64,000 nt of DNA, taken from a virus. Both the position numbers and the translations under genes were made by a program. The DNA lies in IMG/VR virus record IMGVR_UViG_2922401287_000007. One strand, given 5' to 3'. The notes beneath the pieces were generated by a model. It was not told the DNA's origin and did not search any database. It saw nothing but the letters and a program-made list of their open reading frames with translations. Shown piece after piece: positions 132-50,862 of this stretch (position 1 is its first letter; every line of letters starts with the position of its first letter).

Positions 132-1547
132 ATGCCGCAGAACATCACCAACAAGGACTGCATCGGCGAAGTGAAAAAGCGCGAAAAGATTTACGACGCG
201 GAATGCTCGGGCCTGTACGTCAGCCTGAGCCCCACCGCGCCGCCGACCTTCTCGCTCAAATACACTTGCCGGATCACCAAGCAGCGCGCCACCCAATGGC
301 TGGGCATCTATCAGAAAGGAGGTGAAGGCAGCCCAGCGCGCGACGTAGCCTATTGGCGCAGGGAAGCCATGAAGCTGAAGATCAGGATCGGCAACGGCGA
401 GGACATCGCGCAGGCCGCGCGGCAGGCGCATGACCGGCAGGCCAAGCAGCAGCTGACGGTCGGCCAGCTGATCGATCAGCGCATTGCATGGATCAGCGAG
501 GAGATCGAGGTGCGCCGCCACACCGAGGACGGCGTCATCATCAAGCGAAAGCCGCGCATGAAAGACTGGTCGAACATGGCCAGCCATCTCAATCGCTTCG
601 TGCGGCCTCGGCTCGGCTCGATGGTGGCGCGCGAGGTTACCAACGATGATATCGCGCAGCTGCAGGCCGACATCCTCGCGGGCACGCTGATCATCCGGAA
701 CGGCAAGGCCGCCAAGAAGGGCTCGGTCTCCAGCGCGCGGCATATGCGTAAGGCTGTCTCGGGGCTGTTCAACTGGGCGGCTGAAGCTGGCCGCAAGTAT
801 GTCAGCACCAGCCCCTGCGTGAATTTGCCGGCGCTGCCGCAGGAGGAGCCGCGCAAGCGCAAGCTGAGCCCTGACGAGATCAGGATTCTCTGGCATGGCC
901 TGGACCGGCCCGACATGCCGATTGATCGCCGCATCTGCCTCGCGCTGAAGTTCGCGCTGGCCTCGATGCTGCGCTCGGTCGAGATGCTGCACATCCATCG
1001 CGATGAGCTGGGCCGCGATGGCTTGGCCAGCAAGCTGCCGCTGGTGGTGATCCCCGAGGAGCGCGTGAAGAAGGGCCGCGAAATACATCAGCCGCTGAGC
1101 GATCTGGCGGTCGAGATCGCGAAGGAAGCGAAGGGCAATTACCCATGGCTGTTCGCGGGCCGCTTCGGCACCGAGCCGCTGAACCGCAAGGCGATGGCCT
1201 GCGCGCTGCGCGGCAAGACCAAGCTGGTAAAGGGAAAGGTGGTGATCCAGAGCGAAGGCATCTGCCGCATGCTCGGGCTGAAGCCCTTCACGCCGCATGA
1301 TCTGCGGCGCACCGCTGCCAGCCTGATGGGCAACATCAAGGTGCCGCGCTCGATTATCTCGCTCTGTCTCGACCACACTATCAAGAGCGACGAGCATGGC
1401 GATGTCTCGCCGATCACCGGCAAGCACTACGATCAGGACCCCCGCATCGCCGAGAAGCGCGAGGCCCTGCAGCTGCTCGCCGATGAGATCAGGCGCATCG
1501 TCGCCGAGCCCGTGCAGGCGCAAGAGGAGATGAAGCGCGCGGCCTGA
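132..1547 (+). CDS. int: Tyrosine recombinase / phage integrase with N-terminal arm-binding domain
   Basis: GAGGAG RBS before ATG 132; catalytic residues in LRSVE, VKKGR, HDLRRT, LDH and KHYD. Confidence 0.93.
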   Translation: MPQNITNKDCIGEVKKREKIYDAECSGLYVSLSPTAPPTFSLKYTCRITKQRATQWLGIYQKGGEGSPARDVAYWRREAMKLKIRIGNGEDIAQAARQAHDRQAKQQLTVGQLIDQRIAWISEEIEVRRHTEDGVIIKRKPRMKDWSNMASHLNRFVRPRLGSMVAREVTNDDIAQLQADILAGTLIIRNGKAAKKGSVSSARHMRKAVSGLFNWAAEAGRKYVSTSPCVNLPALPQEEPRKRKLSPDEIRILWHGLDRPDMPIDRRICLALKFALASMLRSVEMLHIHRDELGRDGLASKLPLVVIPEERVKKGREIHQPLSDLAVEIAKEAKGNYPWLFAGRFGTEPLNRKAMACALRGKTKLVKGKVVIQSEGICRMLGLKPFTPHDLRRTAASLMGNIKVPRSIISLCLDHTIKSDEHGDVSPITGKHYDQDPRIAEKREALQLLADEIRRIVAEPVQAQEEMKRAA

Positions 1548-2322: not shown

Positions 2323-3484
2323 ATGGAGTTCATCGACCTCGACCGATATTTCGTACCGCTAAAAGCGGACCAGGAGCCTAGACTCGATATCGGCCGCTTT
2401 GGGGACCTCAATTAAGCGGCTGGCTTGGTTGGGAAGAACTGCGACGCCGCCGCCGCATCATTTTGCTCGCCGAAGCCGCTAGTGGAAAAACAGAAGAGTT
2501 CCGTTATCAGTGCGAGGCTCTGAGAGCGGCGGGCCATCCGGCGTTTTTCTTTCGGATCGAGGAGCTTGCAGAGCAAGGAACGGAAATAGCCTGCACAGGG
2601 AAAGCACAGAGCTTTTCGAGGCGTGGCGAGCTGGCCCGAACCCAAGAGATCACGCACAACATGCGCGTGATGCCATTTTGTCGGCACTCTTGGCACGACC
2701 GGGTGCCGATGCTTACCACGCGATGCAACGGCTCGCGGACGACCCCGTCTTCGCCTTGCGTTCCCATCGCTTTCACGAGCTAGCGCGCGGGAAGGCCGAG
2801 CGCGACGCCGAAAATCCCGCGTGGACCGCGGCGGAAGTCGTCACCTTCGAGCGGCAATTCACGGCGCCCGTCAAAACGGGTGAGGATCTGCTGCGCCTCG
2901 TCATGGGCGTCCTTGCCGATATCGCCCAGAACCTGACAAAGGGCGACGCCACGTCGCGCGCCCTGCTGGAACGCGCAAAGGACGAAGAGGAGGTCCAACA
3001 TTGGCTGGTCGAGCAAATGAACGCGCGCGCTCACGGCCGCTTTCATGCTTTCCGGGAAGCCGAGGTCGCGTTAGGCCACAAGCCGGATGTCATTGCCGCT
3101 TCCACCTCCGCCCCGTGTCAAGTGGCGGTTGAAATCAAGCACGGCGGCAAGAGCTGGTCCGCGCGCGATCTCGAAAACACCCTGCGGACGCAACTCGCGG
3201 AGGATTACCTCAAAGAGGAAAGCCGACGTCATGGCGTTCTCGTTATCACTCACCATCGAGACCGCCGCTGGCAACGCATCGGCGATAACAAGCCGATTTC
3301 CTTTTCCGACCTCATCGCATGGCTATCCGGTATCGCGGCGACGATCACGGAGAATGCCGTAGGCCAGATCAGCGTGCAATGCGCTGGCATTGATGCATGG
3401 AAGAGAGATACCAGCGCCGATCCTCCGAAGGCAACTGAAGCAAAAGCCAAATCTCGCGACAGGCGGCGGCCCGTGGCGTCTTGA
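2323..3484 (+). pseudogene. Remnant of a NACHT/STAND-type ATPase with C-terminal PD-(D/E)xK nuclease-like domain
   Basis: Walker A-like IILLAEAASGKT; frameshifts at ~2400 and ~2590; no Walker B before a jump to a C-terminal E...PD...VEIK segment. Confidence 0.6.
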
Positions 3485-4445: not shown

Positions 4446-5863
4446 GAGCTATCGCCAAATTTTGGTGACGGCCGGGGCCGGTCAGGCGGCGGCGGTTGTG
4501 GGTTGACGGTCGGTCGGTTTAGCGATGACCTCGATCCCGTCGGAGAATGTCACACCGAGAACGAGTTTTGGCAACTGGTTGTGACCGTCGAGACGGCGCC
4601 AGCTTTTCTGCGCGCCCTCGACCAGTTTGAAGACCATCGCGAGCGCGGTCTTGTTGGACAGGCAGCCCTTCGATCTGATGGTGCGGTGGCGCACGGTGGC
4701 GAAGGTGCTTTCGATGGGGTTGGTCGTCCGCAGGTGCTTCCAGTGCTCGGCCGGGAAGTCGTAGAAAGCGAGCAGCGTGTCTCGATCCTTGGCCAGGCAG
4801 TCGGCCGCCTTCTCGTATTTTAGCGTGTAGCTCTCGATGAAGGCTTCGAACGCCAGTTCGGCAGCGACCTTCGTTTCGGCCATCCAGATCTCCTGCAACG
4901 CGCGTTTGGCCTTCTGCTGCTGGCTCTTCGGTAACTTGGCGAGCACGTTGGCGGTTTTGTGCACCCAGCAGCGCTGCTCGCGCGTTTTCGGCCAGACCTC
5001 GCCAGCGGCCTTCCAGAACCCGAGTGCGCCATCGGCGATGACGAGCCGCGGGGAAGCATCGAGCCCGCGCCGCTTCAGATCGAGCAGCAGGTCGCGCCAG
5101 TCGTGCGCACTCTCGCGGGCGCCATCGGTGAAGCCGACCAGTTCCTTGCGGCCTTCCGGCGTCGCGCCGATCAGCACCAGGATGCACTGCTTTTCGTCCT
5201 CGAGGCGGGCTTCGAGATGGATGCCGTCGGCCCAGATGTAGACGTAGCGCTTCGCCGACAGATCGCGCTTCTGCCACGCGGCGTGCTCGTCGAACCAGCC
5301 GTCCTTCAGGCGGCCGATGGCCGATGCCGACAAGCCGGCAGCATCCTTGCCGAGCAGCGCCGCCAGCGCCTCGGAGAAGTCACCGGTTGAGATGCCCTTC
5401 AGATAAAGGATCGGCAGCAGCGTCTCGATCGACTTCGAGCGGCGCATGTAGGGCGGCAGGATCGACGGCGAGAACCGGATGCGGCCGGGATCGCCGGCGG
5501 CGGCCGCGCGGTCGCGCACACGCGGCTGGTGAACGGTGACCGGACCGATACCGGTCATCACCTCGCGTTCCGGCAGGCGACCGTGGCGGACGACGCGCTG
5601 GTGGCCGTCCTGGGTCTTCAAATCGGCATGCTTGTCAAGAAAGTCCGCGACCTCGGCCTCGACTGCCTTGGCGAGCAGGGCACGGGCTCCGTTGCGCAAG
5701 ATTTCGGTGAGTTGATCGTCGAAGAATCCTGGCTGAATCAGCTTGATAACGTTATCGTTGGACACGGCATATCGCTCCTTCGGTGGAGAAGTGGAGGCGT
5801 CAAGCACCCCCACGATATGCCGCCTTCCCGATTCCCGCCGTCACCAACTTTCGGCTATAGCTC
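4446..5863 (-). mobile_element. IS256-family insertion sequence
   Basis: 27-bp imperfect IRs (GAGCTATCGCCAAATTTTGGTGACGGC); 9-bp target duplication TCGTCCGTG at 4437-4445 and 5864-5872. Confidence 0.95.
4482..5765 (-). CDS. IS256-family transposase
   Basis: YVYIWADG, VIADGALG, QRCWVHK and RTTNPIESTF motifs; likely GTG start at 5765. Confidence 0.93.
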   Translation of the reverse strand: MSNDNVIKLIQPGFFDDQLTEILRNGARALLAKAVEAEVADFLDKHADLKTQDGHQRVVRHGRLPEREVMTGIGPVTVHQPRVRDRAAAAGDPGRIRFSPSILPPYMRRSKSIETLLPILYLKGISTGDFSEALAALLGKDAAGLSASAIGRLKDGWFDEHAAWQKRDLSAKRYVYIWADGIHLEARLEDEKQCILVLIGATPEGRKELVGFTDGARESAHDWRDLLLDLKRRGLDASPRLVIADGALGFWKAAGEVWPKTREQRCWVHKTANVLAKLPKSQQQKAKRALQEIWMAETKVAAELAFEAFIESYTLKYEKAADCLAKDRDTLLAFYDFPAEHWKHLRTTNPIESTFATVRHRTIRSKGCLSNKTALAMVFKLVEGAQKSWRRLDGHNQLPKLVLGVTFSDGIEVIAKPTDRQPTTAAA

Positions 5864-19605: not shown

Positions 19606-20099
19606 CCCGTCTTATTCGTCAGAGGGCGCCTGAGAGGCTGGCGAGCGTGGTGTAAAGCGCTGATGCGGCGTAGGATTCGGTTGCAAAGCCAACCCCATCA
19701 CCTTCAGCCGCGAACACCACGCCCGCCATGACCGATGATACGATTCCGCCCTTCTCGTTTCCAGCCGTTCACGCCAGGAAAGTCACAGCTGCCTTCGATG
19801 GTGGGCGGCTAACCTCGAACGGGGGCGTGATGCTTCTGGCGATGGCCGAGCGGCGTCTCGGCTTGGCCGACAATTTGGCCCGGGTGTTCCCGGATGGCGC
19901 GATCCGACGCGGGTCGTGCACAGCCTGATCGATATGTTCCGCGCGCGCATGTTCGCGATCTGCTGCGGCTACGAGGACGCCGACGACCTCGATCATCTGC
20001 GGTCCGATCCCGCATTCAAGCTGGCCTGCGGACGGCTGCCGGACACGGGTCGCGATCTGTGTTCCCAACCGACGCTGTCGCGGCTGGAGAATGCTCCGC
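19606..20099 (+). mobile_element. IS1380-family fragment (copy 2, 5' part only)
   Basis: Near-identical to copy 1; 1-nt deletion near 19894; identity stops at 20099. Confidence 0.9.
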
Positions 20100-39235: not shown

Positions 39236-40659
39236 CAGCTCGCCTCGTCCTGGAATTGCACGAACAGCTCGCGCAACTGCAGCGGTGCGGCCTCGCTGGT
39301 GTCCGACAGGATCGGCGTTGCGGTGTAGGCCTCGCGGTCGATTGTCCAGCCGATGATCGAGGGCGCAGGCAGGCCGCGCTCGCCGCGCGCTCCCGCTTCG
39401 CCACGCGCACCGGGCGGGCCCTGCTTGCCGGGGCGGCCAGCGCTGGCGATCAGCTGCCAGCCTTCGCCGGGGCACGGCCCCGGATCATCGCTGCGTGCGA
39501 TGAAGCTGGAGCCGCCAAGGGCTACGATGTTGAGGAACGAATAGTTCTCTCCCTCGCGGTAGGTGCCGAGAATTTTCGGCATCACTGCATCGCGTCCCTT
39601 GGCGGCGATCAGCTGCCAGTCCTCGTGCGGCGGCGCTTTCGCGGTGTCGCATCGAGCCTGATAGGTCGAGCCCTGATGCAGGACGAGATCGCCATCGTAA
39701 TGGACCGAACCGTCTTCATAGGCTCGCGCCGTCTTCAACTGCCCCGGTGCGCCCTTCTCACCGGGCGGGCCCGCTTCGCCGCGCTCGCCGGTTTCGCCTT
39801 TTTCACCGGGGACACCCTGATCGCCTGCAGGGCCCGACTGGCCTTGCTCGCCCGCTTCGCCTTTTTCGCCGCGCTCGCCGGTTTCGCCCTTTTCACCGGG
39901 GACACCCTGATCGCCTGCAGGGCCCGACTGGCCTTGCTCGCCCGCTTCGCCTTTTTCGCCGCGCTCGCCGGTTTCGCCCTTTTCACCGGGGACACCCTGA
40001 TCGCCTGCAGGGCCCGACTGGCCTTGCTCGCCCGCTTCGCCTTTTTCGCCGCGCTCGCCGGTTTCGCCCTTTTCACCGGGGACACCCTGATCGCCTGCAG
40101 GGCCCGGCTGGCCTTGCTCGCCCGCTTCGCCTTTTTCGCCGCGCTCGCCGGTTTCGCCCTTTTCACCGGGGACACCCTGATCGCTTGCAGGGCCCGGCTG
40201 GCCTTGCTCGCCCGCTTCGCCTTTTTCGCCTTGCTTGCCATCTTGGCCTCGCTCTCCGTTGTCGCCCCGCTCCCCTTGCGGGCCCTGCTCGCCGCGCTCT
40301 CCGCGCTCGCCACGCTCGCCCTGAAGGCCCTGCAGGCCCTGCAGGCCCGGATCACCATCGCGGCCATCTGCGCCGTCCTTCAGCTCGGCCAGCCGGTCGC
40401 TGACCTGCTGCTGCAGGGCGGTGAGCTGCTCGCGCGCATAGGTCATCACCAGCTGGCGCAGCTCGATCACTTCGCCGCGCAGCTTCAGGATCGCGGCCTC
40501 GCTCTGCGCCTCGATCAGCTGGCGCTCGCGCTGCCATTGCTCGCGCTGCTTGTCGAGCACATCGGCCAGTGCCTCGCGCCACGCCTCAAGAAGAAAGTCG
40601 GCGGCGTCCGATCCGGTCGGCACTGGCAATGAGGCTTCGGACTTCCCGTTGGATTGCAT
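39235..40659 (-). CDS. Collagen-like protein with coiled-coil N-terminus and aromatic C-terminal modules
   Basis: Long G-X-Y tract; likely ATG at 40659. Confidence 0.8.
   Translation of the reverse strand: MQSNGKSEASLPVPTGSDAADFLLEAWREALADVLDKQREQWQRERQLIEAQSEAAILKLRGEVIELRQLVMTYAREQLTALQQQVSDRLAELKDGADGRDGDPGLQGLQGLQGERGERGERGEQGPQGERGDNGERGQDGKQGEKGEAGEQGQPGPASDQGVPGEKGETGERGEKGEAGEQGQPGPAGDQGVPGEKGETGERGEKGEAGEQGQSGPAGDQGVPGEKGETGERGEKGEAGEQGQSGPAGDQGVPGEKGETGERGEKGEAGEQGQSGPAGDQGVPGEKGETGERGEAGPPGEKGAPGQLKTARAYEDGSVHYDGDLVLHQGSTYQARCDTAKAPPHEDWQLIAAKGRDAVMPKILGTYREGENYSFLNIVALGGSSFIARSDDPGPCPGEGWQLIASAGRPGKQGPPGARGEAGARGERGLPAPSIIGWTIDREAYTATPILSDTSEAAPLQLRELFVQFQDEAS
39773..40230 (-). 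repeat. Five near-identical 90-bp tandem repeats
   Basis: GCCTTGCTCG recurs at 39841, 39931, 40021, 40111 and 40201. Confidence 0.95.
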
Positions 40660-42040
40660 CGCGGTCGCCCTTTTCTGGAGGCGGTGGCTTGGCATCGTCA
40701 TTCGCGGCAGCAGCAGCAGCGGGCGGTGCGGCTGGTGGAGCTGGAGCTGCCGGAATCTTGTCAACGGCACTGAGCGGAACGACTTGCTGCTGCACGCGCG
40801 GCTCGTCGCCAAATTTGACGGCATCGAGGCCCTCGGTCTGACGGGCTTCATTGGGAGCATAGATGCCGCCCTGAACACCACGCGCCAGCGCTTCGATGCG
40901 GTCTTTCAACGCCGAGCGCAGCAGCGCCGCCGTATCGAACTCGACATACTCGTCGGGCTGGCCTTTGAGACCGAACAGCAGCCCGATGGATTCCTCGATG
41001 TGGTTGAGCGCGAAGCCGAGGCCGGACGCGATCCAGCTCTGCATCAGCAGCTCGGTCGATGAAAGGTTGTTGCCGCCGATGCCGAGCACCTGCAGCGGAA
41101 TGCGGAAGGCGAGCGCGATGTGCTCATTCGACAGCTTCAGCATGTCGGCAGTCGCAGCATCCTTGCCGCCCTGCGCCCATGGCTGCACCTTCAGGCCTGC
41201 GGTCAGGATCGGCGTGCCGCCCTGATGCAGCCCTCGCGCCTGCTCGTTCCAGCGGTCGCGCAGCGCCTGGACCTGATCCTTGTCGAGCACCAGATCGGTC
41301 GAGAGCACCGCCGAGGGCCGCGCCTCGTTCATGTAGAACCTGAGTTGCTGCTGCGCGATGGCCGCGCCCATGCCGACATCGCTATAGGCCGCGACAATCG
41401 GCGACTCACCGACCAGCGGAGTCGGGAAGCGCTGGCGCTGGGTGTGCAGCCGGATGTGCAGCACGTCGCGCGCTGGCACGATCAGCGCCTCTTCGCCGAG
41501 CCGCCTGCTGATGATGTCATTGCCGCCGAGCTGATAGAAAATATCGCCGGTCGTCGCCAGCCGTGGATAGGACAGGCGCGGGTTCATCAGATGCAGCTCG
41601 TTGATCTCATAGCGGTCATTGCGCAGCGCCAGCGCATAGGCATTGCCGTCGAGATAGAGCGAGCGCGTGCCGTTCAGCAGGAAGTCGCTGATCGATTGAT
41701 AGTCGTTGGGATGGCGCAGGATACGGGACAGGGCCGAATTGGTGATCCGGTCCCGCCCGTTTTTCGCATTGAGCCGCCAATGATCGCCGGGGCACATCGC
41801 GACCGTTTGCGCATAGGCCGAGACGCAGGCCTCGACCATTGCCGATTGCGACGACAGCGACAGAACATCATAGCCGTTCTGCCACCAGTTGATGGAGTTG
41901 CCGACATCGGCTGGCAACCATCCTCCGGTGACAGGAAGAAACCACGGCCCCGCATGCGCTTCGCCTTCGGCTTTGGACACAAGCGCAGTGCTGCGTCCTG
42001 CCTTGATTCGCACGCGAGGCTTGGCGGCGGTCTCGGTCAT
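40586..42040 (-). CDS. HK97-family portal protein
   Basis: LYLDGNAY, DVLHIR, GESPI, EHIALAFRIP and PNEARQTEGL motifs. Confidence 0.93.
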   Translation of the reverse strand: MTETAAKPRVRIKAGRSTALVSKAEGEAHAGPWFLPVTGGWLPADVGNSINWWQNGYDVLSLSSQSAMVEACVSAYAQTVAMCPGDHWRLNAKNGRDRITNSALSRILRHPNDYQSISDFLLNGTRSLYLDGNAYALALRNDRYEINELHLMNPRLSYPRLATTGDIFYQLGGNDIISRRLGEEALIVPARDVLHIRLHTQRQRFPTPLVGESPIVAAYSDVGMGAAIAQQQLRFYMNEARPSAVLSTDLVLDKDQVQALRDRWNEQARGLHQGGTPILTAGLKVQPWAQGGKDAATADMLKLSNEHIALAFRIPLQVLGIGGNNLSSTELLMQSWIASGLGFALNHIEESIGLLFGLKGQPDEYVEFDTAALLRSALKDRIEALARGVQGGIYAPNEARQTEGLDAVKFGDEPRVQQQVVPLSAVDKIPAAPAPPAAPPAAAAAANDDAKPPPPEKGDRDAIQREVRSLIASADRIGRRRLSS

Positions 42041-42384
42041 TCGTGCTTCGCACCCGCCGTGTCATGTTTCCCGGCAGGTGCCGGGGCCGATGTCCGCGTC
42101 GAGTAGTCGCCGCGCTGAGCAGGTTGCGGCGACGGCTTGGTCACGCGGGTCTGGTGATGCGGCGACGGCTGACCGGGCGGCGGCGCATTCGGATCGGGCG
42201 GCGATCCATCCGGCTCGTGCTCGTCGAGATGCTCGCCCTCTGCCGCGAGGTCATTCTCCTCCTGCGTCGGCGTCGGCTTTGCATTGGCCATCGCCTCGCG
42301 TTGCTCGGCCTGCTTCTTTTCGCGGGCCGCCTTCTCGTCAGCGAGCCGCTTCTTGGTGGCTTCGACCTTGTCGGTGTCGGTCAT
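42037..42384 (-). CDS. Conserved hypothetical head-region protein
   Basis: KPTPTQEEND motif. Confidence 0.55.
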   Translation of the reverse strand: MTDTDKVEATKKRLADEKAAREKKQAEQREAMANAKPTPTQEENDLAAEGEHLDEHEPDGSPPDPNAPPPGQPSPHHQTRVTKPSPQPAQRGDYSTRTSAPAPAGKHDTAGAKHE

Positions 42385-42416
42385 GTCTGAGGTCTCCTTT
42401 CGAGAGAGTGGACCGC

Positions 42417-44516
42417 TTACCAAGTGACGCCGCTGACGACAGCGACGACGCCGGGGCGGCGGATGGTCCAGTTGATCGGCAGGATCAGCCGCAGCGCGAG
42501 GCTGTCGGTCTGCCAGAGCGACTTGACCGGGGTTGCAGGGGTGCCAGGCGCAGCGCCACTGACGATGTCGGCGGGCGCGGTGTCTTCCAAGTGCAGCGTG
42601 GCTTGATCGCTGATCTCGAAGCGCGGGGCTTCGCCACCGACCGCAACGAAGTCTGCGGCATCGATCACGACCACCTCACCGAGCGGCACGGTGCCGGAAT
42701 CGATGATCGGCCAGCCGCCGAGCTGGCCTCGGCTGACTTCCTCGCGGAACGGGAAGGCACCGACGCCCGGAGCCGCCGTCAGCGAGATGCTGTTGACCTG
42801 CTGCGGGTTCATCAGCCAAGCCGGATTGCGCACGTTGCCCTTGGTGCCAGTGAGCAAGGCACCAGTGAGCTGCTTGATGTCGCCGACCAGCGCACCGAAG
42901 CCGCCGCCTGCAGTAGGCGTCAGCGGGGTGATGCCGTTCAGGATACCGGGCGGCCGGATCAACGTCGCCGGGTTGGTGTCGAGCAGGATGCTATCGAGCG
43001 AGATCGCGGTGTCCTGCGAGATCGCATCGCGCAGCAGGCCTTCGATGGCGGGCACGGAGTGCTCATCGATCTCCTTGGTCCAAGTGGTGATGACCGCCAT
43101 CTTCTTGGGCGTCAGGGTCTGCGACGTGAATGCGCCCTGACGAACCGGGATCGGCATGCCTTCGCCGACGAACGAGCCAGCGATGGTCGGCGTCAGCGAG
43201 CGGGTCGGAATGATGATCCTGCCGTTGCGGCCGAACTCCAGCGAGAGCCCGAGCGAGGACAGACGCGGGAAGACCGACTTCGGCATCAGCGTCTGCATGA
43301 AGTCGGTAACGATCTGCTGCACCAGCTCGGCGGCCCAGCCGGTGACCGTGGTCATGGCAGGAGCCGTTGCCGCGCGGGTTGCCCAATCGAGCACGGCGCG
43401 CGTCTGCTCGTCGTCGCCGTAAATTTCGCGCATCATGGCATCGACAGGCTTGCGATGGATGTGAGCGAACAGCTGCACGGTGCCAGCGCGCACCAGCAGC
43501 TCAATCGGCTCGACCTTCTTTTTCGGAAGGTTGAACGGCCTCGCGGGCTGATGCGTCGTCGCCGCCGTTGCGCCGCGCGACAGTACGACAGTGCGGCCAT
43601 CGTCGGACTGTTGGCCGAGGCTCTTCTCGGTACCGCGCAGGGCTTCGAGCGTTTTCTCTTCCCGCTCGATCTTCTCATTGAGGTCAGTGGCGATCTTCAG
43701 CTGATCGTCGCTGACATTGGTCTCGTCGGTCTTTTCCCAATGTGCAGCAAGCTGATCGCGCAGCGCGTTGACGCGCTGTTCGGCAGCGATAATCCTTTGA
43801 GCAAACGACATTGTCGTGCCCTTTCTACCAGTCGATGAATTGTCGGCTTGCCCGCCAGTGATCCCGCGCCGCTTGATGCCGTCCGTTGCGCCTTTCCCGG
43901 CGAAGACGAGATCGATTGTTGCGGGGGAAAGTTTCAGAGCCTTGGCGACCGCGAGCGCATTCGGATTCGCGGGCACCGAGACGACGCTGGTCTCGACCAG
44001 CTCGCTCTTGGTGAAGAAAACTCCGTAGTCGGATTCGGCGCGCGGCTTGCTCTCCTTCGGCCTGAAGCCGACCGAGACGGCGCGCAGGATGTCGGCCTCG
44101 ATCAGCCGTCTGATCTCATCGATGCGATCCGAGGTGCCATCCGGGGCCAGCTCCAGAGTGCCGCGCAGCTGCTTGTCCACGACGCGGACATTTTTCCACT
44201 TGCCAATCGGGAAGCTGCTTTGATGGCCGAACAGCGCAATCGGATTTCTCTTGAAGTTCGACAGGTCCCAGCCGTCCGACATGATGACATCGTCCATGCG
44301 GTCGGGCGTCTCATCAGAGAGCACGAACTCGAGACCGTTGACCTTGGCGGCGGTGGTCTTGAAGCGGATGCCCTCGGCGGCGCGGTTGTCCCAGATGATC
44401 TGACAGACATCCTCGTCGCCGATCCCGTCCGAGCAGCGATCCATGAAGTCCTCATAGGACTCGTCGTCGTCGGGCTTGATGTCCTGCCGCGTCAGGTTCT
44501 GGTTGCGCTTCAGCAT
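42417..44516 (-). CDS. Fused HK97 prohead protease and major capsid protein
   Basis: LFGHQ and AVSVGFRP...ETSVVSVPANPNA; capsid part likely from MSFAQRI (43811) ending WTIRRPGVVAVV. Confidence 0.9.
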   Translation of the reverse strand: MLKRNQNLTRQDIKPDDDESYEDFMDRCSDGIGDEDVCQIIWDNRAAEGIRFKTTAAKVNGLEFVLSDETPDRMDDVIMSDGWDLSNFKRNPIALFGHQSSFPIGKWKNVRVVDKQLRGTLELAPDGTSDRIDEIRRLIEADILRAVSVGFRPKESKPRAESDYGVFFTKSELVETSVVSVPANPNALAVAKALKLSPATIDLVFAGKGATDGIKRRGITGGQADNSSTGRKGTTMSFAQRIIAAEQRVNALRDQLAAHWEKTDETNVSDDQLKIATDLNEKIEREEKTLEALRGTEKSLGQQSDDGRTVVLSRGATAATTHQPARPFNLPKKKVEPIELLVRAGTVQLFAHIHRKPVDAMMREIYGDDEQTRAVLDWATRAATAPAMTTVTGWAAELVQQIVTDFMQTLMPKSVFPRLSSLGLSLEFGRNGRIIIPTRSLTPTIAGSFVGEGMPIPVRQGAFTSQTLTPKKMAVITTWTKEIDEHSVPAIEGLLRDAISQDTAISLDSILLDTNPATLIRPPGILNGITPLTPTAGGGFGALVGDIKQLTGALLTGTKGNVRNPAWLMNPQQVNSISLTAAPGVGAFPFREEVSRGQLGGWPIIDSGTVPLGEVVVIDAADFVAVGGEAPRFEISDQATLHLEDTAPADIVSGAAPGTPATPVKSLWQTDSLALRLILPINWTIRRPGVVAVVSGVTW

Positions 44517-44579
44517 GACTCGGCCCTCCCGCAGGCTGCAGGTTGGTTGGATCGATGGGGTGCGAAGGATGAGGAGCGG

Positions 44580-44924
44580 CTAGGCCGCTGTTTCGACCGC
44601 GATGGCGAACTTGGTCTCGGTCTTCTGATCGATTGGATGGGCGCGCGTGCCCGAGCGCAGCTTCAGCCAAGCGATGGCGCGGGCCCAGTTCTCGTGGATG
44701 ATGATGGTGCTGTTCGGCCTTGCGACGATGGTGATCTCCTCGCCGTTGGCACCGTAGAGATCGTTGTAAAGATTGCCGTCGCTGGAGGCCTGCAGCGTCA
44801 GATTCGCAGGCGTGAACTCCTGCGGCACGGTGATGCGGACGATCTCGCCAGCGGAGCAATCCACGCCATCGGAAAGCGCTTCGCCTTCGGCAATGGTCGG
44901 GCCGTCGATGACTTGCAGCGGCAT
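44580..44924 (-). CDS. Phage hypothetical protein
   Basis: MPLQVIDGPTIAEGEALSDGVD. Confidence 0.6.
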   Translation of the reverse strand: MPLQVIDGPTIAEGEALSDGVDCSAGEIVRITVPQEFTPANLTLQASSDGNLYNDLYGANGEEITIVARPNSTIIIHENWARAIAWLKLRSGTRAHPIDQKTETKFAIAVETAA

Positions 44925-44937
44925 AGCGGTCTCCTTT

Positions 44938-45249
44938 TCAGCGGTGGCGATTGGCGGGATGGTTCGGATCGGTCGGCCAGCCATCGGCATCGACTGCGAT
45001 GTCGAAGCCGCGCGCCTCGATCTGCTGCTTGGTCGAGCTATGGCAGGGCGAGCAGAGACTCTGCAGCTCGCCCAGGCAGAACAGATTCCAGCTTCCGCGA
45101 TGCGGCTTGACGTGATCGACATGCGTGGCCGCCGTGACGATGCCGTCTGCCGCGCAGAACTTGCACAGCGGATGCGCGAGCAGCTGCTGCCTGCGGCGGC
45201 GCTGCCAGAAAGCGGTGTCGTAGAAATGTTTCCAGCTCTCGCGGCTCAT
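44938..45249 (-). CDS. HNH endonuclease (packaging cofactor)
   Basis: PLCKFC...HVDHVKPH...LQSLCSPCH. Confidence 0.9.
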   Translation of the reverse strand: MSRESWKHFYDTAFWQRRRRQQLLAHPLCKFCAADGIVTAATHVDHVKPHRGSWNLFCLGELQSLCSPCHSSTKQQIEARGFDIAVDADGWPTDPNHPANRHR

Positions 45250-46820
45250 CCGATCAGCGCCTCGATATCGACTGGCTTGATGTTGCGATCTCTCGCGCGC
45301 AGCCCGAGCAGCATCGAGAGCGCTACCGCGCCGTCGATCCGAAACCGCGCCTTGTCCTTGTCCAGCTTGCGATTGCCAGCGGGATCGCTGGTGGCGACCG
45401 CGTTTGCCATGTTCCAGTTCAGCACCGGATTGTTCGGATGGATCAGCTGGCGCTCGATCACGGCCAGCTCCAACGCATCGATAGCGGGGCCCATATCCCT
45501 GTAGCCTTGGCCCCAAGGCACCAGCCGCAGGCCGTCGCCGCCTTTTTCGCAGTCCTCGTAAGCCTGCAGCCCGATGCGGTCGAACTCGCGCAGGATGTAA
45601 TCCATGTGCCAGCGATCATAGGCCATGCCCTTGATGCGATAGCGCTGCGACATCTCAGCGATGAAGAGCGCGACCGCTTCGGGGTTGATCGTCTTGCCGG
45701 GGCTGTCATGCAGGCGGCCAGCTTCGGCCCACTCGCGGTAGCGATGCGAGCCCGAGCCGAAGTCGCGGCTTGAATGTTCGATCAGCTTGTCGCGCGGCTT
45801 CCAGAAATGTGGCTCGATGCGGCAGGGATCGCTAACCGAGCCGATCATCAGCGCGGTGAGATCGACGGTGCTCGACAGATCGAGCGAGAGATAGACTTCC
45901 TCGCCATCCTGCAGCTTGCTCTCGCCCGCGCAGGCCTTCCATTCGGCGCGGCTGATCAGCGAGGCGTGCGGCGAGACGCGCTGAGTCAGGAAAAGGTTGC
46001 GAACCTTCGGCTCCTCGGCGGGCATTCTGATCGCCTTGCGGATCGATGTCGCAAGGTCCTCATAGTCGCGGAATTTGGCGAGTGCCGGATTCGCCTTGTG
46101 CCATTGCTTCTCGTCGCCCAGCTCGCACTCCTCATCGGCGGCGTAGAGATGGCAGACGATGGCCGGATCGACGCCCGAGATTCCATCGTCGATCAACTTC
46201 GACATGATGTGCTCGGGATCGTTGCTCTGCGTCGAGATCACGATGAACAGCGGCTCATCGCGAGCGCCGAAGGAAGTATCGAGCACGTCATAGAGGTCGC
46301 GGTTCTTCGCCTGGGCCAGCTCGTCATAGATCACGAGGCTCGGCAGATAGCCGTGCTTGGTGCCAGCCTCGGCAGAGATCGCGCGATAGACCGAGCCGGT
46401 GCGCCGCGCGATCATGGTCTTGGTCGAGGGCACCAGCTCGATCATCTGGCCCAGCTCGGGATCGAGATCGACCATCTGGCGCGCAAATTTGTAGACGATG
46501 GCGGCCTGATCCCGATCATTCGCGGCGGAATAAATTTCGCCGTGGACGATAGCCTCGGGGCCGACCAGATGCGCGAGCACGATGGCCGCGATCAGCGCGG
46601 TCTTGCCATTCTTGCGCGCCATCGAGAGGATCGCGCGCCGCACTACGCGCCGCAGCTTCAGCTGGGGTTCATAGACGGCGCGGATGAACAGCTTCTGGAA
46701 CGGCTCCAGCTTGAAGGGCTCGCCTTGGCCCTTGCCCGAGGGCACGGTAAGTTTCTCGATAAACTTGATGACCGCCGTTGCGCGAGCCCTGTCGCGCCTA
46801 GCCTGCGATGAGTCCTGCAA
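45246..46820 (-). CDS. terL: Terminase large subunit
   Basis: MARKNGKT Walker A, VIYDELA Walker B and RIDGAVAL. Confidence 0.95.
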   Translation of the reverse strand: MQDSSQARRDRARATAVIKFIEKLTVPSGKGQGEPFKLEPFQKLFIRAVYEPQLKLRRVVRRAILSMARKNGKTALIAAIVLAHLVGPEAIVHGEIYSAANDRDQAAIVYKFARQMVDLDPELGQMIELVPSTKTMIARRTGSVYRAISAEAGTKHGYLPSLVIYDELAQAKNRDLYDVLDTSFGARDEPLFIVISTQSNDPEHIMSKLIDDGISGVDPAIVCHLYAADEECELGDEKQWHKANPALAKFRDYEDLATSIRKAIRMPAEEPKVRNLFLTQRVSPHASLISRAEWKACAGESKLQDGEEVYLSLDLSSTVDLTALMIGSVSDPCRIEPHFWKPRDKLIEHSSRDFGSGSHRYREWAEAGRLHDSPGKTINPEAVALFIAEMSQRYRIKGMAYDRWHMDYILREFDRIGLQAYEDCEKGGDGLRLVPWGQGYRDMGPAIDALELAVIERQLIHPNNPVLNWNMANAVATSDPAGNRKLDKDKARFRIDGAVALSMLLGLRARDRNIKPVDIEALIG

Positions 46821-47289
46821 ATTTGCTCTGCGAATTGGTAGCCTGCGAGCCCGCGCTGATGCGGCTGCGCGCCGCTGGCGTCAGGCCGAACTCGGCGGCG
46901 AAGCGCACCACATCGCCCGCATGCTTGCGCACGATGGAGACCAGCGGATTGACGGCGGCATCGCCGTACTTGGTCTTGATGATCATGCCGTTCATCAGCG
47001 GATCATTGCTCTGCATCCGCGCCAGCGATTCCGAGGCCATCCGCCATTGCCCGAAAGCGTGGCAGTAGCAGGCGAGCGCGGGGACATCGACTTTCGTCAG
47101 CAGGCCGAGCCGATGCAGCTCGGTCGCGGTGATCCACCACTCATCGGCGGCATAGCCGGTGATGAAGGTCGGCGGCTCGGGGACATCCGGCAGCTGCTCG
47201 GGCTGCGGCTCATCGTGCAGCTTGCGCTGGCCTGGATTCCCGCGCAGCAGCTTCAGATGCGTCGGTAGCGGTCGCTTGCCGGGTTTCAT
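46798..47289 (-). CDS. terS: Terminase small subunit (P27 family), in frame with the upstream mom-like ORF
   Basis: AGAGGA RBS; MKPGKRPLPTHLKLLRGNPG...FGLTPAARSRI. Confidence 0.9.
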   Translation of the reverse strand: MKPGKRPLPTHLKLLRGNPGQRKLHDEPQPEQLPDVPEPPTFITGYAADEWWITATELHRLGLLTKVDVPALACYCHAFGQWRMASESLARMQSNDPLMNGMIIKTKYGDAAVNPLVSIVRKHAGDVVRFAAEFGLTPAARSRISAGSQATNSQSKFAGLIAG

Positions 47290-48036
47290 TTCCATTCCTC
47301 TCTGTCGCTGGAGCGTGGGGATCGGTGCTGCGCCGTCGCTGTGCCGGTTGGAGCCAGCCATCGCCTGCTTCCCACGCACGCCGCGATACATGGTTGCGCC
47401 GCGCGCCTCGATTGCGCTGTAGGGCAGCGGCTCGCCGACGAGGCGAGCGCGAGCCGCCGGATTGAGAAAATAGATGTAGCGCAGCGTGTGGCCTTCGAGC
47501 GTCGGGCCGGTGCCGCGCCATCGCCCGCCCGTCGCCGCCAGATGCTGCAGCTTATTGCGCCCGGTGATCTGGCTCATCTTGTGAATGATGCTGCCGTCCT
47601 CGGCGATGTGCAGGTCCTTGTTGATCTTGATCGCGGTGAGCAGGAAGCCCGCCGCGCGATAGATCGTGCCGTCGCCGCATTGGCAGGCATCGGCGAAAGA
47701 GATGATCCATTCGATATGCGGGTAGTTCTTCCTGATCATGCGCAGCGCGATGCCGAGCGCGCGGCTTTCCGAATTGCGCGGCAGCGCATCGGTGAAGGCG
47801 AGCCGGTTCAATTCGAGGAAGCCGTTCCAGCCGGTATCGCGGACCAGATGCACGATGTTCGACTTCTGCAGGCTGGGCCCCAATTGCATCGCGCCCTCCA
47901 GCATGCCGTGCAGGAAGACGCCGAGCGACAGCTTCGAATTGCGAACGACCTTGCCGCTGTAATGGACGCGCCGGATCAGCGCGTCAGCATCGCGCTTGGC
48001 GATGGGGCGGACCTCGATCTCTTTCGCGCTGGTCAT
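46798..48036 (-). CDS. Mom-family adenine hypermodification (GNAT-like) protein, read through into TerS
   Basis: RVHYSGK, LELNRLAFTDALPRNSESRAL and IISFADACQCGDGTIYRAAGF motifs; no stop before terS. Confidence 0.8.
   Translation of the reverse strand: MTSAKEIEVRPIAKRDADALIRRVHYSGKVVRNSKLSLGVFLHGMLEGAMQLGPSLQKSNIVHLVRDTGWNGFLELNRLAFTDALPRNSESRALGIALRMIRKNYPHIEWIISFADACQCGDGTIYRAAGFLLTAIKINKDLHIAEDGSIIHKMSQITGRNKLQHLAATGGRWRGTGPTLEGHTLRYIYFLNPAARARLVGEPLPYSAIEARGATMYRGVRGKQAMAGSNRHSDGAAPIPTLQRQRGMEMKPGKRPLPTHLKLLRGNPGQRKLHDEPQPEQLPDVPEPPTFITGYAADEWWITATELHRLGLLTKVDVPALACYCHAFGQWRMASESLARMQSNDPLMNGMIIKTKYGDAAVNPLVSIVRKHAGDVVRFAAEFGLTPAARSRISAGSQATNSQSKFAGLIAG
47309..47377 (-). ncRNA. Atypical tRNA(Gly)-like element inside the mom ORF
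   Basis: GCGTGGG/CCCACGC 7-bp acceptor stem, U discriminator and CCA; GCTGG-CTCCAA-CCGGC arm; GACGG-CGCAGCA-CCG(A)TC arm. Confidence 0.65.
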
Positions 48037-48230
48037 TCGCGCCGCAGCACTTCAAGGGTCATGCCCGCGCCGAGCACGATGAGGCCGACGCTCTCGGGGA
48101 TCAGCTTGCGGAAGTGATCCTCGATCCATCTGGCCTGCTCGCGGCTCAGCACCTGATCGCATTTCACGACCAGTCGGTCGCCCTCGCGCAGCTCCAGCTT
48201 TGCAATTTCAAATCTGGTGGTTTCGGTCAT
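48033..48230 (-). CDS. Small hypothetical protein (65 aa)
   Basis: ATGA overlaps on both sides; KLELREGDRLVVK. Confidence 0.65.
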   Translation of the reverse strand: MTETTRFEIAKLELREGDRLVVKCDQVLSREQARWIEDHFRKLIPESVGLIVLGAGMTLEVLRRE

Positions 48231-48859
48231 CGGTCGTCCTGGTACGCGCGGCAAATTTCCGCCAGCGCGTTGCCGTTCTGGTTTTTGTTTTCCGAGGCCT
48301 CGCTCGGCGGTCCGAGGATCGCCGATGCGCGCTCTATCGCCTTCGCTACCAGCTCGGCCTGCGTCTCGTGCAGGATGAAGGTCATCTGCTGGAAGGGCGA
48401 GCGCTCGCCGTCGCTGATGATCGGCATGCCGCCAAGGCCTTCGACGCCTATGCCCATCTCGCGCAGCTCGGTCTCGCTGAAGCCAGTCAGATCGGCGAGG
48501 CCGAGCGAGGCGAGGTCGTTCAATTCGACGCGCAGCAGCGCATCGTCCCACTTGCCGTTCTCGGTCAGCTTGTTGTCGGCGATCAGATAGGCCCGCTTCT
48601 GCGCATCTGACCAGCCGCGAGCTACCATCGTCGGCACCTGATCGATGCCCAACTGCTCCGCAGCCAGCACTCTCCCGTGGCCAGCTATGATCGACCCGGC
48701 TTCATCGATCAGCACCGGGATGGTCCAGCCCCACTCGCTGATCGAGGCCGCGATCTGCTCGATCTGCTCCTCGGAATGCAGGCGGGCGTTGCGGGCGTTC
48801 GGCACCAGCTCGCTGATCGGGCGGCGCGATACCTGATCCGCAGGCCAGTTCCGGGCTAT
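48227..48859 (-). CDS. ParB/Srx-like N-terminal domain protein of the DNA-modification cluster
   Basis: NARNARLHSEEQIEQIAASI, IIAGHGR and IADNKL motifs; best RBS precedes ATA at 48859, so the start is uncertain. Confidence 0.8.
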   Translation of the reverse strand: MARNWPADQVSRRPISELVPNARNARLHSEEQIEQIAASISEWGWTIPVLIDEAGSIIAGHGRVLAAEQLGIDQVPTMVARGWSDAQKRAYLIADNKLTENGKWDDALLRVELNDLASLGLADLTGFSETELREMGIGVEGLGGMPIISDGERSPFQQMTFILHETQAELVAKAIERASAILGPPSEASENKNQNGNALAEICRAYQDDR

Positions 48860-49451
48860 TTCGGACCCTCCGAAATGGCTGTTTTTGTCGGGACAAACGC
48901 CCTTTTTGCTCGACTGCTGCATTCCGGCTCCCATGGTCACGCCACTGAAAACGCTGCGTTTTTGGCGTTGAGAAGGATCTTCCACGCGGCAACGTGATAC
49001 CGATGGAAAGGGCCGTTTTGATCAGTAAGTTAGCCGGGATCGCTTCCTGCTAACTGCGTCAGGTTCGGAGCGGTATTTTCGGAGCAAGCCTATGATCATA
49101 TTGCAGATTTTGCAGGCGGAGAACTTTCGTCCTTGAGCGTTTTCTGAATGTGCAGGCGCTAATTTTGGAGCGCCGCCAGCGCTCGGACCCGTCTCGCCAA
49201 CAGTTAGCGATCCTCCCCCGGCCCCCGTGGCATATTATTCCCCCATGTTTTCAATTGGTTAGATCGCATTCGAGGCGCGAACGATGCGAATGCATGGTCA
49301 AATTCGGACTACCGGAAGGCCCAGACCGGGCCCAAACGGCCTGATCTGGCTCTCCTTGCGCCCCGTTCACTCGCAATAGAACCAACTTCCACGCAAATAG
49401 CGTCGCTGTATCAATGGCTTGTGGCTACCATTCGGAGCCCACGATGGGGCA

Positions 49452-49691
49452 TCAGCGCGGAGCCACCAGCTTGCTGCGGACCTCCTCGCAGCTCTCTGAC
49501 ACAGTGACGAACTTGCCATCGGTAAGGCCGATCATGCAGTGGACCTCACTGGTGAAGAACTTGCTCTGCTGATCGGCCTCGCGTGAGGCGCGCAGGGTGG
49601 TGACCTGATCCGGGTTGATCTCGACCGCATACCCATCAGGGCCATGGAACGAGACGAGGCGCAGCGCGACGACGGCAGCAAGCAGGATCAT
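49452..49691 (-). CDS. FlbD-like small protein
   Basis: VEINPDQVTTL...DGKFVTVSESCEEV. Confidence 0.5.
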   Translation of the reverse strand: MILLAAVVALRLVSFHGPDGYAVEINPDQVTTLRASREADQQSKFFTSEVHCMIGLTDGKFVTVSESCEEVRSKLVAPR

Positions 49692-49761
49692 TCAGCAGCC
49701 CTTGCAAATGTCCGGTGGTGGCGGCTCAGCTGGCGGCAGCGCATCAAACCGCGACTGCTTC

Positions 49762-49996
49762 CTATTGATAGGCCCAAAAGTGCGGCAGGCCACCGCCCAG
49801 GCCCAGCACGCCAGCGAGCCACGTCACGATGGCGATGATGCACAGCAGGCCAACGATGATCTGCGCCCATTTGTAGACCATCGGATCGATGCTCCAGCCG
49901 AGGAAGCCGGTGATCAGCCAGCGCATCGCATAGGCGATCACGATGATGATCGCGAGATAGAGCAGCAGGTCCAGAAACGAGATCAGGGATCGACAT
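49762..49996 (-). pseudogene. Small two-TM membrane protein (holin candidate) with +1 shift just after the start
   Basis: GGAGG RBS and ATG at 49996; removing one C at ~49987 gives MSILISFLDLLLYLAIII... Confidence 0.5.
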
Positions 49997-50110
49997 GCCG
50001 CGCCTCCACAAAAAACCGGCCTCAGTGTGAAGCCGGTGAAAGCAATGTTGTGTAGCGTCTGGACACAGGGGCGAGTCACACTTCGAGCCGCACCTGCGCG
50101 CGTGAAGAGA

Positions 50111-50716
50111 TCACTCTGGAACTGGAAAATCAATTCCCGGCAGCGGCGGGAAGATGTGATGTGGACCTGTCTGGACCTCATTGGTCAAAATCTGTCGAAA
50201 AATATTTTGTCGCAGGCGGGCTCGGGCCTCGGCATAGGACATGCCGCGCCCTTGCTGCTTGGCTTCCAGCCGCCACGCGCGATAGGCCGAATTGAACCAC
50301 GCCAGCTCGCCTGCGGCTTGCGCCTGCGCGATCCGCTGCTCGATGTATGCGACCGCCGTGCGCGCCCGCGCGAGCACGGTGTCGTGCTCGGTAAGCGCAA
50401 TGCCCATATGCGCGGCGACGTTCTCGACCTTGCGCTGCGCGGTCCTGGCGGTGGCTACCAGCAGGCCATCGTCGCCTCGCGAAAGGCTGGCGTTGACCTC
50501 GCGGCAGATCAGCCTCGCGTCGGTTTTATCCTTCACCCAGTACGCGCAGGTGATCTGCAATGCGGGCCATCTGCGGCGCAAGGCCAGCAGGCTGTGCAGC
50601 AGATCGCGCGAGCATGAGACGAAAGCACCTGCAGGCAGCGCGGCAACATAGATCGCGACCACACCGTAGATCGCCAGATATTCCCGCACAGCTCCTCTCG
50701 GCAGCATCAGTGCCAT
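50111..50716 (-). CDS. Phage hypothetical protein
   Basis: 201-aa ORF with GAGG RBS. Confidence 0.6.
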   Translation of the reverse strand: MALMLPRGAVREYLAIYGVVAIYVAALPAGAFVSCSRDLLHSLLALRRRWPALQITCAYWVKDKTDARLICREVNASLSRGDDGLLVATARTAQRKVENVAAHMGIALTEHDTVLARARTAVAYIEQRIAQAQAAGELAWFNSAYRAWRLEAKQQGRGMSYAEARARLRQNIFRQILTNEVQTGPHHIFPPLPGIDFPVPE

Positions 50717-50731
50717 CGGGTGCCTCGATCT

Positions 50732-50747
50732 TATGCGGTTTGTGACA
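50732..50747. promoter_or_regulatory. TATGCG-N4-GTGACA motif, copy 3
   Basis: Identical over 17 nt to copy 2; degenerate copy TGTGCACAATGTGACA at 50791-50806. Confidence 0.55.
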
Positions 50748-50862
50748 GAACAGCGCAGATCAAAAATATTTCATCGGGAAAAAACGGCAATGTGCACAAT
50801 GTGACACCGATCACGTTCACGCATCTGAGAAATCGCCCCAATCCGCTCATCTAAGAAATTCT

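Follow-up and report, generated by a model that had tools for sequence, protein, structure and literature searches.

A tRNA-Gly-like RNA gene between mom and terS in a viral sequence, and the read-on reading frame that spans all three

Three head-to-tail genes, namely mom, a 69-nt tRNA-Gly-like RNA gene and terS, very probably lie on the minus strand of the viral DNA analysed here, and the single 412-aa reading frame that covers them is either an incidental read-on or an assembly error. The analysed DNA is a stretch of 64,000 nucleotides from the IMG/VR record IMGVR_UViG_2922401287_000007, hereafter called the window. This interpretation draws on the anatomy of the open reading frames, a one-base difference from the nearest genome, the variable position of the mom stop codon among relatives, the structure and covariation of the RNA, and its linkage with mom.

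Organisation of the locus

The relevant features of the window are as follows.

47380..48036, minus strand: mom proper, aa 1-219, ending at the conserved MYRG (Pfam Mom, 7e-51; PDB 8bv8)
47309..47377, minus strand: tRNA-Gly-like RNA gene, 69 nt (covariance model match of 84.5 bits; covariation)
47290..47308, minus strand: spacer with the terS ribosome binding site (RBS), 19 nt; AGAGGA at 47301-47296 (comparison with the nearest genome)
46798..47289, minus strand: terS, small terminase subunit of 163 aa with its own start (Pfam Terminase_4)
45246..46820, minus strand: terL, large terminase subunit, overlapping the end of terS (Pfam TerL_ATPase and TerL_nuclease)
46798..48036, minus strand: 412-aa read-on ORF that starts in the Mom frame, crosses the tRNA-like gene and the spacer and ends in the terS frame (ORF listing and Pfam)

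The original prediction, made from the letters of the sequence, had described one stop-less frame of 412 aa composed of Mom-like and TerS sequence. The ORF listing confirms a single uninterrupted frame at 46798..48036, and Pfam assigns two domains to it, Mom (PF25680, aa 7-207, 7e-51) and Terminase_4 (PF05119, aa 296-398, 4e-21). The junction peptide named in that prediction, PTLQRQRGMEMKPGK, is present, as are the separate AGAGGA RBS (47301..47296) and ATG (47289..47287) of terS; the tRNA-like element also lies where it had been placed, shortly before this ATG, with its CCA ending 19 nt ahead.

The Mom part matches PF25680 over its full length (173 bits with a cut-off of 27.1; profile positions 2-201 of 202) and the structure of phage Mu Mom (PDB 8bv8, E 1.6e-25), with an identity to Mu Mom of 36-37%. 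The catalytic residues R111 and S124 of Mu Mom (PMC13219725) correspond to R78 and S91 in the window, i.e., the R of ELNR and the second S of NSESRA, and both are invariant in the two homologue alignments. The full-length profile match and the catalytic Arg/Ser pair assign the predicted protein to the Mom family, and the data are best explained by a functional Mom protein that ends near residue 219, at MYRG. The downstream part is identified as terS by its Terminase_4 profile (75.8 bits), its own start signals and the adjoining terL. Its start, MKPGKRP, is conserved in relatives, and the same 163-aa ORF is found in the related loci L001 and L002. The minus strand shows neither a promoter-like nor a terminator-like site in the interval from mom to terS.

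Origin of the 412-aa reading frame

The read-on depends on a short A-run in the spacer. In the window this run comprises three residues (47291-47289), the last of which is the first base of the terS ATG, and in the nearest genome, G001, it comprises four (GGAAAATG), the two versions being written together as GGAA(A)ATG. This is the only difference over the compared segment: across 4,506 nt, G001 C1:19828-24333 and window positions 46255-50759 align without a mismatch and with a single gap. Because the A-run is one base shorter in the window, the read-on shifts into the terS frame and ends only at the stop of terS, yielding 412 aa. All three G001 copies encode a Mom of 275 aa, the annotated length, which stops inside terS, 98 nt after the CCA and in a different frame from terS; database Bradyrhizobium Mom proteins have 274-277 aa. 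From these comparisons, the three-residue run of the window probably reflects a recent, neutral slip or else an error of assembly, and it does not point to a designed fusion. We also considered programmed frameshifting and transcriptional slippage on this run but discarded both on sequence grounds, as three or four A residues are too short and no slippery heptamer is present.

The position of the mom stop codon varies considerably among relatives. In 80 loci, it was found upstream of G1 of the element in 5, within the element in 10, 2-7 nt past the CCA in 15 and 11-124 nt past the CCA in 49; the window alone reads on into the next gene, with its stop at +509. Thus, the stop lies beyond G1 in 75/80 loci. 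In some relatives it is located 9-10 nt ahead of the element, and in a cultured Psychrobacter phage it likewise precedes the RNA. A scan of genome contigs for related loci yielded only 5 loci. Of the refuting observation named with the original prediction, one half is borne out: close relatives do have a stop, located 98-124 nt past the CCA and in a frame other than that of terS. In this lineage, the mom frame usually lacks a stop ahead of the RNA gene and is read until a chance stop. The nucleotides of the tail are translated in two frames among relatives (SDGAAPIPTLQ versus QRRSSTDPHAP).

The open frame between the element and terS is, by our own arithmetic, no more than expected by chance. 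Stop codons make up roughly 2% of codons at about 70% G+C, so that about 30 stop-free codons from the element up to the terS ATG are an event with a probability of about 0.5. Whether the read-on enters the terS frame is a question of phase, with a chance of 1 in 3, and that frame is open by definition.

It had also been proposed that a genuine Mom-TerS fusion protein couples DNA modification with packaging. The frame is open through both domains in the window, and many phages place mom and its RNA directly ahead of packaging genes. Nevertheless, the in-frame state hangs on a single base of the A-run and is lacking in the otherwise identical G001 copy. It is absent from the 79 other loci (0/79) and from all 3 G001 copies, and is also missing from B. 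erythrophlei and B. cytisi. A search of 5.8 billion proteins returned only two Mom matches with terminase sequence, P0001 and P0005. P0001 was rejected as a second in-frame case, as it lies on an error-prone contig in which terS and terL are fragmented, and P0005 is partial and carries an internal deletion. Furthermore, terS retains its own conserved RBS and ATG, which is not expected of the second domain of a fusion, the genes that follow mom and its RNA represent 6 or more unrelated terminase families or do not encode terminases at all, and the supposed linker is a translated tRNA-like gene whose frame differs among relatives. A fusion with this purpose is therefore unsupported and highly improbable. 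Since the read-on depends on one base and the window is unique among the 80 loci, the 412-aa frame is not a conserved fusion but either incidental or an assembly error. Should translation precede cutting of the transcript, this strain would produce a 45-kDa Mom-TerS chimera, which may be tolerated or used.

These results matter for annotation. The 412-aa Mom-terminase protein should not spread as a fusion, and the Bradyrhizobium Mom models of 274-277 aa carry a meaningless tail that derives from the RNA gene and the start of terS.

Structure and conservation of the tRNA-like element

The acceptor stem of the element is formed by pairing of positions 47377-47371 with 47319-47313. It is accompanied by an anticodon-like hairpin (47358-47343) with the loop CUCCAA, a T arm (47337-47320) with a bulged A, the equivalent of U73 at 47312 and an encoded CCA at 47311-47309. 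We first modelled the T stem with an unpaired C and a G.A mismatch, but the A-U/G-C covariation and the Rfam alignment favour a stem of 5 bp in which one A is bulged.

In 73 distinct copies, 96.9% of the cells in the alignment of paired positions are paired, compared with about 38% in slid controls, and 15 of the 17 pairs change on both sides. The acceptor stem is 100% paired in these copies, with both-sided changes in 5 of its 7 pairs. G1-C72, C2-G71, U73, the bulged A and the CC of the loop are each present in 73/73 copies, the CCA in 71/73 and G3-C70 in 69/73. The determinants of bacterial glycyl-tRNA synthetase (GlyRS) are G1-C72, C2-G71, U73, C35 and C36 (PMC10464925). The element thus combines a 7-bp acceptor stem, the discriminator base and a 3' CCA with predicted GlyRS determinants that are invariant at the acceptor end (73/73) and in the loop CC (73/73). 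The window copy lacks other features of standard tRNAs: it has no D stem, a loop of only 6 nt (CUCCAA) and the T loop CGCAGCA, and its T stem contains a bulged A. For these reasons we refer to it as tRNA-like and not as a tRNA. ARAGORN made no tRNA call in the window or in 45 loci, and no Rfam match was obtained with E<=1 for window positions 46000-49000. Longer relatives are near-canonical cloverleafs, and one of them (L039) scores 30.6 bits with the Rfam tRNA model RF00005 (gathering threshold 29); the relatives grade into a form that this model accepts. In single-sequence folding, the element has no energetic advantage over shuffled sequences (z 0.39), and the case for a real RNA rests on covariation and comparative evidence, with fold energy giving no support.

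Linkage between the element and mom

Of 85 loci selected by Mom, 84 have a covariance model match to the element at the 3' end of mom, as does the window. Conversely, in 79 loci selected by the DNA pattern of the element alone, mom directly precedes the element in 62 and directly follows it in 9, and four of the five pattern-picked loci without mom lie at contig edges. Among the 151 genomes of the family, the 2 that encode Mom are also the 2 that carry the element, and in 4/4 cases the two lie side by side. Two weak covariance model matches elsewhere in G001 (22 bits) were discarded, as they are not tRNAs according to ARAGORN. All close relatives examined carry the element, as do hundreds of viral contigs, and it accompanies mom whatever gene comes next. 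The cultured Psychrobacter phage vB_PmaS_Y8A has two copies in tandem, located between its mom and terS genes. It does not adjoin mom in the phages Mu, Aeromonas pAEv1818, Pseudomonas PAN70 and Enterococcus 159, nor in the Elizabethkingia, Porphyromonas, Methylophilales, Arthrobacter, Bacillus and Lactococcus phages; these ten cultured phages indicate that the element is not universal to Mom genes.

Phages often bear tRNA fragments at attachment sites, and this, together with the lack of ARAGORN and Rfam calls in the window, could suggest a decaying tRNA gene or attachment-site remnant without present function, over which the ORF simply passes. However, compensatory changes in 15 of the 17 pairs refute decay, neither the identity positions nor the bulged A varies, both acceptor strands are complete, and the element is linked with mom and not with integrases across diverse hosts. 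The probability that it is such a remnant is very small.

Possible function and maturation of the element

Work from 2023 to 2026 showed that Mom draws its glycine from Gly-tRNAGly, which serves as glycyl donor (Silva et al., Nat Commun 2026, PMC13219725). As Mu Mom uses Gly-tRNAGly, we infer for the mimic a role as private glycine donor, with transcription, processing, charging and use by Mom as its steps. In detail, mom, the RNA and terS would be co-transcribed, and the RNA would be excised by RNase P cleavage at G1 and 3' trimming to the CCA. Host GlyRS would load glycine onto the excised RNA, and the charged RNA would act as a private glycyl donor to Mom for N6-adenine modification of phage DNA. 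TerS would be made from its own start codon. Taken alone, the private donor role is fairly probable. Much less certain is the full chain, in which the mimic is cut out and charged by GlyRS as a private donor that the ribosome cannot use, the cut takes away the only stop codons of mom, so that most of these phages make Mom from non-stop messages, tmRNA tagging of the product limits a toxic enzyme, and a separate terS message is freed; we regard this complete sequence of events as a tentative and rather doubtful proposal.

The original prediction had also suggested that excision of the RNA leaves a non-stop mom message and creates a new 5' end for terS. This stands insofar as the RNA is real and carries an encoded CCA, and since it must be excised for use, the cut would disconnect mom from terS and deprive mom of its stop. 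That excision mainly serves as a processing switch, with tmRNA-rescued non-stop mom messages and a new terS 5' end timing or limiting Mom relative to packaging, is unlikely. A 12-bp acceptor/T helix with an NCCA end is a minimal bacterial RNase P substrate, and the RNA has both. The mom stop beyond G1 in most loci, the 19-nt spacer without room for a terminator or promoter, and the frequent occurrence of terminase genes after mom and its RNA are also compatible with a switch. Yet the stop precedes the RNA in 5 loci and in the cultured Psychrobacter phage, and a non-stop mom message is thus not required. The element is located upstream of mom in 9 loci and sometimes precedes non-terminase genes, following mom irrespective of the next gene, and a mere cleavage signal would not need the conserved GlyRS determinants.

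A large clade of mom genes carries in cis a reduced tRNA-Gly mimic of its own, which would supply a private co-substrate to a DNA-modifying enzyme. The mimic also offers a natural minimal substrate for studying RNA recognition by Mom and GlyRS. An ORF that overlaps an RNA gene whose maturation would delete the stop of the ORF is an unusual arrangement.

Comparison with known systems

One of the closest known systems is Mom of phage Mu, which belongs to the same enzyme family, shares the catalytic Arg and Ser and uses donor chemistry of the glycyl-tRNA ester type. Mu has no linked tRNA-like gene and scavenges host tRNAGly, whereas here the mimic sits at the mom 3' end and is overlapped by the mom frame; the study of Mu Mom (PMC13219725) does not mention a mom-linked tRNA. 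As a separate observation, Mu Mom functions with ordinary host tRNAGly, and a private donor is thus not strictly needed.

A glycine-accepting variant that serves a GNAT-fold transferase outside the ribosome is also known from Staphylococcus aureus, where non-proteinogenic tRNAGly isoacceptors for FemXAB have altered features that are expected to disfavour translation (PMC7826273). These tRNAs are full-size, chromosomal and detected by standard tools (PMC7826273). In contrast, the mimic is phage-borne and encoded in cis with the enzyme gene, comprises 69 nt, and has a 6-nt loop, a bulged T stem and no D stem. It may be used only weakly by EF-Tu and the ribosome.

The read-on itself resembles the spurious long ORFs of high-G+C genomes, in which stops are scarce, frames overrun the functional end and one indel alters the product. 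The window differs in that the read-on crosses an RNA gene and lands in the frame of the next gene, mimicking a two-domain fusion. tRNA shapes inside longer RNAs are known from mitochondrial tRNA punctuation, MALAT1 mascRNA and the 3' tRNA-like structures of plant viruses; their excision or 3' end sets the neighbouring messages, and some are aminoacylated. Different from these, the element is found in a bacterial phage and overlaps the upstream ORF, whose stop would be taken by its excision, and the charged RNA is proposed to be used directly by an enzyme.

The Mom–TerS reading frame

The ORF listing of the window contains a single 412-aa open frame on the minus strand (46798..48036), in which Pfam assigns residues 7-207 to Mom (PF25680; E 7e-51) and residues 296-398 to Terminase_4 (PF05119; E 4e-21). 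The ORF listing, Pfam and the minus-strand sequence bear out everything that the original prediction had read here, namely the frame, the AGAGGA and the ATG at 47289:

45246..46820, minus strand: terL, with TerL_ATPase and TerL_nuclease domains (Pfam), 3' of terS
47289, minus strand: terS ATG, opening MKPGKRP
47301..47296, minus strand: AGAGGA, within the 19-nt spacer that follows the CCA
47311..47309, minus strand: CCA end of the tRNA-like element (47377..47309)

Among 5.8 billion proteins searched, with lengths limited to 226-721 aa, the matches were almost exclusively stand-alone Mom proteins, most of them 245-277 aa long and from Bradyrhizobium. Close relatives share the Mom tail ...SDGAAPIPTLQR, after which they run on in a frame other than that of terS and reach a stop about 26 codons on, resulting in proteins of 274-277 aa. 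In the nearest genome, G001, the region is present three times (identities 100, 99 and 90%) and Mom has 275 aa in all three copies. The first copy aligns to window 46255-50759 over 4,506 nt without a mismatch and with a single gap, which is located in the spacer (GGAATGGAAAATG in G001 vs GGAATGGAAATG in the window, i.e. four vs three A). The 412-aa frame is thus due to one base; the shorter A-run of the window may be genuine allelic variation or stem from misassembly. Among 80 related loci with a followable mom frame, the mom stop starts 9-10 nt 5' of the element in 5, lies within it in 10, and follows the CCA by 2-7 nt in 15 and by 11-124 nt in 49; only in the window is it found 509 nt past the CCA. 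About 30 stop-free codons are unremarkable at ~70% G+C (probability near 0.5 by our own arithmetic), and the chance that such a run is in phase with terS is 1 in 3. One other protein, the database entry P0001, reads in frame into terS; it was rejected as a second case, its contig having terS and terL broken into pieces. The proposal that a Mom–TerS fusion joins DNA modification to packaging is thus not supported, in view of the one-base cause, the 275-aa Mom proteins of G001 and the stops elsewhere in the 79 other loci. The fused ORF is either incidental or an artefact, and the fused architecture, judged from these sequences, is not conserved.

The surrounding region has several further features. 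An HNH endonuclease gene lies directly 3' of terL (44938-45249, minus strand; Pfam 22.4 bits), a pairing that is typical of cos-type HK97-like packaging modules. Two listed minus-strand ORFs 5' of mom, 48033-48551 and 48227-48985, overlap by ~325 nt. The latter, encoding a ParB_N protein, is probably real, while the actual gene within the former is probably one of roughly 66 aa (48033-48233), with a stop overlapping the mom start and no match in Pfam. A 90-nt tandem repeat at 39775-40230 (5.1 copies, 99% identity), also present in G001, is probably a repetitive protein-coding segment because its unit length is a multiple of 3. The near-identical copy on contig C1 of G001 is without ~5.9 kb present in the window (40311-46255 vs G001:C1 ~19796-19828) and its match begins inside terL, at window 46255; thus, this copy is what remains of a truncated prophage, or the junction differs in the window.

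Structure and predicted glycine identity of the element

ARAGORN called no tRNA in the window, and Rfam returned nothing for 46000-49000, even at E<=1. At the same nucleotide positions, the Mom tail reads SDGAAPIPTLQ in some relatives and, in another frame, QRRSSTDPHAP in others; it is therefore the nucleic acid, rather than the peptide, that is under selection. Conservation in the DNA alignment stops exactly at ...CGCTCCA, even with an unrelated downstream gene. A covariance model built from 30 copies located the element at the mom 3' end, on the mom strand, in 84 of 85 viral and genomic loci chosen for their Mom and in the window; the remaining locus gave a weak match only. In the corrected structure, 96.9% of cells are paired (slid controls ~38%) and 15 of 17 pairs show both-sided changes, counts that come from a model-fitted alignment and are biased towards the structure. 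The element comprises:

acceptor stem: 7 bp
anticodon-like hairpin: 4-7-nt loop
T arm: 5-bp stem with an invariant bulged A in the 3' strand, 7-nt loop
3' end: U, then CCA

Copies of 67-70 nt, including that of the window, are without a D stem, and those of 72-76 nt form a near-canonical cloverleaf. One of the latter passes the Rfam tRNA model (30.6 bits vs a gathering score of 29), with the extra T-stem A visible.

Bacterial glycyl-tRNA synthetases recognize G1-C72, C2-G71, U73, C35 and C36 (PMC10464925). G1-C72, C2-G71, U73 and a CC in the anticodon-like loop each occur in 73/73 distinct copies, CCA in 71/73 and G3-C70 in 69/73; U33 is not conserved among them.

Linkage to mom

Viral contigs were scanned with a DNA pattern from the 3' half of the element only, and the Mom profile was applied afterwards. 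Among the 79 loci obtained, mom is directly upstream of the element in 62, directly downstream in 9, nearby in 3 and absent in 5, four of which are at contig edges. Within the host family (151 genomes), Mom occurs in two genomes and the element in the same two, adjoining mom, with four copies for four genes. The element is not common to all mom genes, being absent in Mu and nine other cultured phages with mom. What follows the element varies: a small terminase from one of at least six unrelated Pfam families, a large terminase, an HTH protein or an unknown; therefore, the unit is mom plus RNA placed before the packaging module, and not mom plus terS.

The alternative offered by the original prediction was that excision of the RNA acts as a timing switch, leaving a non-stop mom message and a new terS 5' end. 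The processing itself is reasonable, as in 75 of the 80 loci release would strip mom of its stop, and terS would be freed. However, some phages have the mom stop ahead of the element, some loci carry the element upstream of mom, and in others non-terminase genes are its neighbours, which argues that neither the non-stop mom nor the terS switch is the selected function.

In the cultured Psychrobacter phage vB_PmaS_Y8A (OQ059336.1), two tandem unannotated mimics (3162-3229 and 3234-3302) occupy the interval that separates the mom CDS from terS, where the mom stop also lies. Its gene order, ParB-Mom-RNA-TerS-TerL-portal, is that of the window, and this phage offers a ready experimental system for the mimic. 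Tandem mimics 1-7 nt apart are also found at the mom end in loci L017 (3292-3360, 3362-3429), L135 and L161. A divergent, A+T-richer Mom clade (viral contigs L143, L154, L156, L164, L152, L136 and L148) has a full cloverleaf with D stem immediately upstream of mom, which starts ~5-14 nt past the CCA. Two Mom-carrying contigs contain candidate type II hammerhead ribozymes, L019 at 1255-1310 (minus strand; 36.8 bits, gathering score 37) and L046 at 4972-5031 (plus strand; 26.9 bits).

A putative glycine donor for Mom

As shown by Silva et al. (PMC13219725; preprint 10.1101/2023.03.24.534169), the Mom of Mu belongs to the GNAT enzymes: it moves glycine from Gly-tRNAGly onto N6 of adenine in dsDNA, after which the product rearranges on the base. 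Any of the three E. coli tRNAGly isoacceptors can act as donor, Gly-tRNAAla cannot, and R111 and S124 are essential (PMC13219725). Neither source mentions a mom-linked tRNA. Both catalytic residues are kept in the window Mom (R78, S91), and from this and the known donor we infer that the element probably serves as a private glycine carrier for Mom. Because no promoter-like or terminator-like site lies between them, mom and the element would be co-transcribed; the element would then be freed by RNase P and 3' trimming, charged by the host GlyRS and used by Mom. EF-Tu and the ribosome probably cannot use it, given the reduced D arm, the odd loop and the bulge in the T stem.

Each component is known, namely the chemistry of Mom, tRNAs carried by phages and dedicated tRNAGly. 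What is new is the arrangement, in which a tRNA-Gly mimic is linked in cis to mom and the mom frame runs across it; Rfam has no entry for it, and we found no mention of it in the literature that we searched. In its role, as predicted from sequence, the element resembles the non-proteinogenic tRNAGly of S. aureus that feeds FemXAB (PMC7826273).
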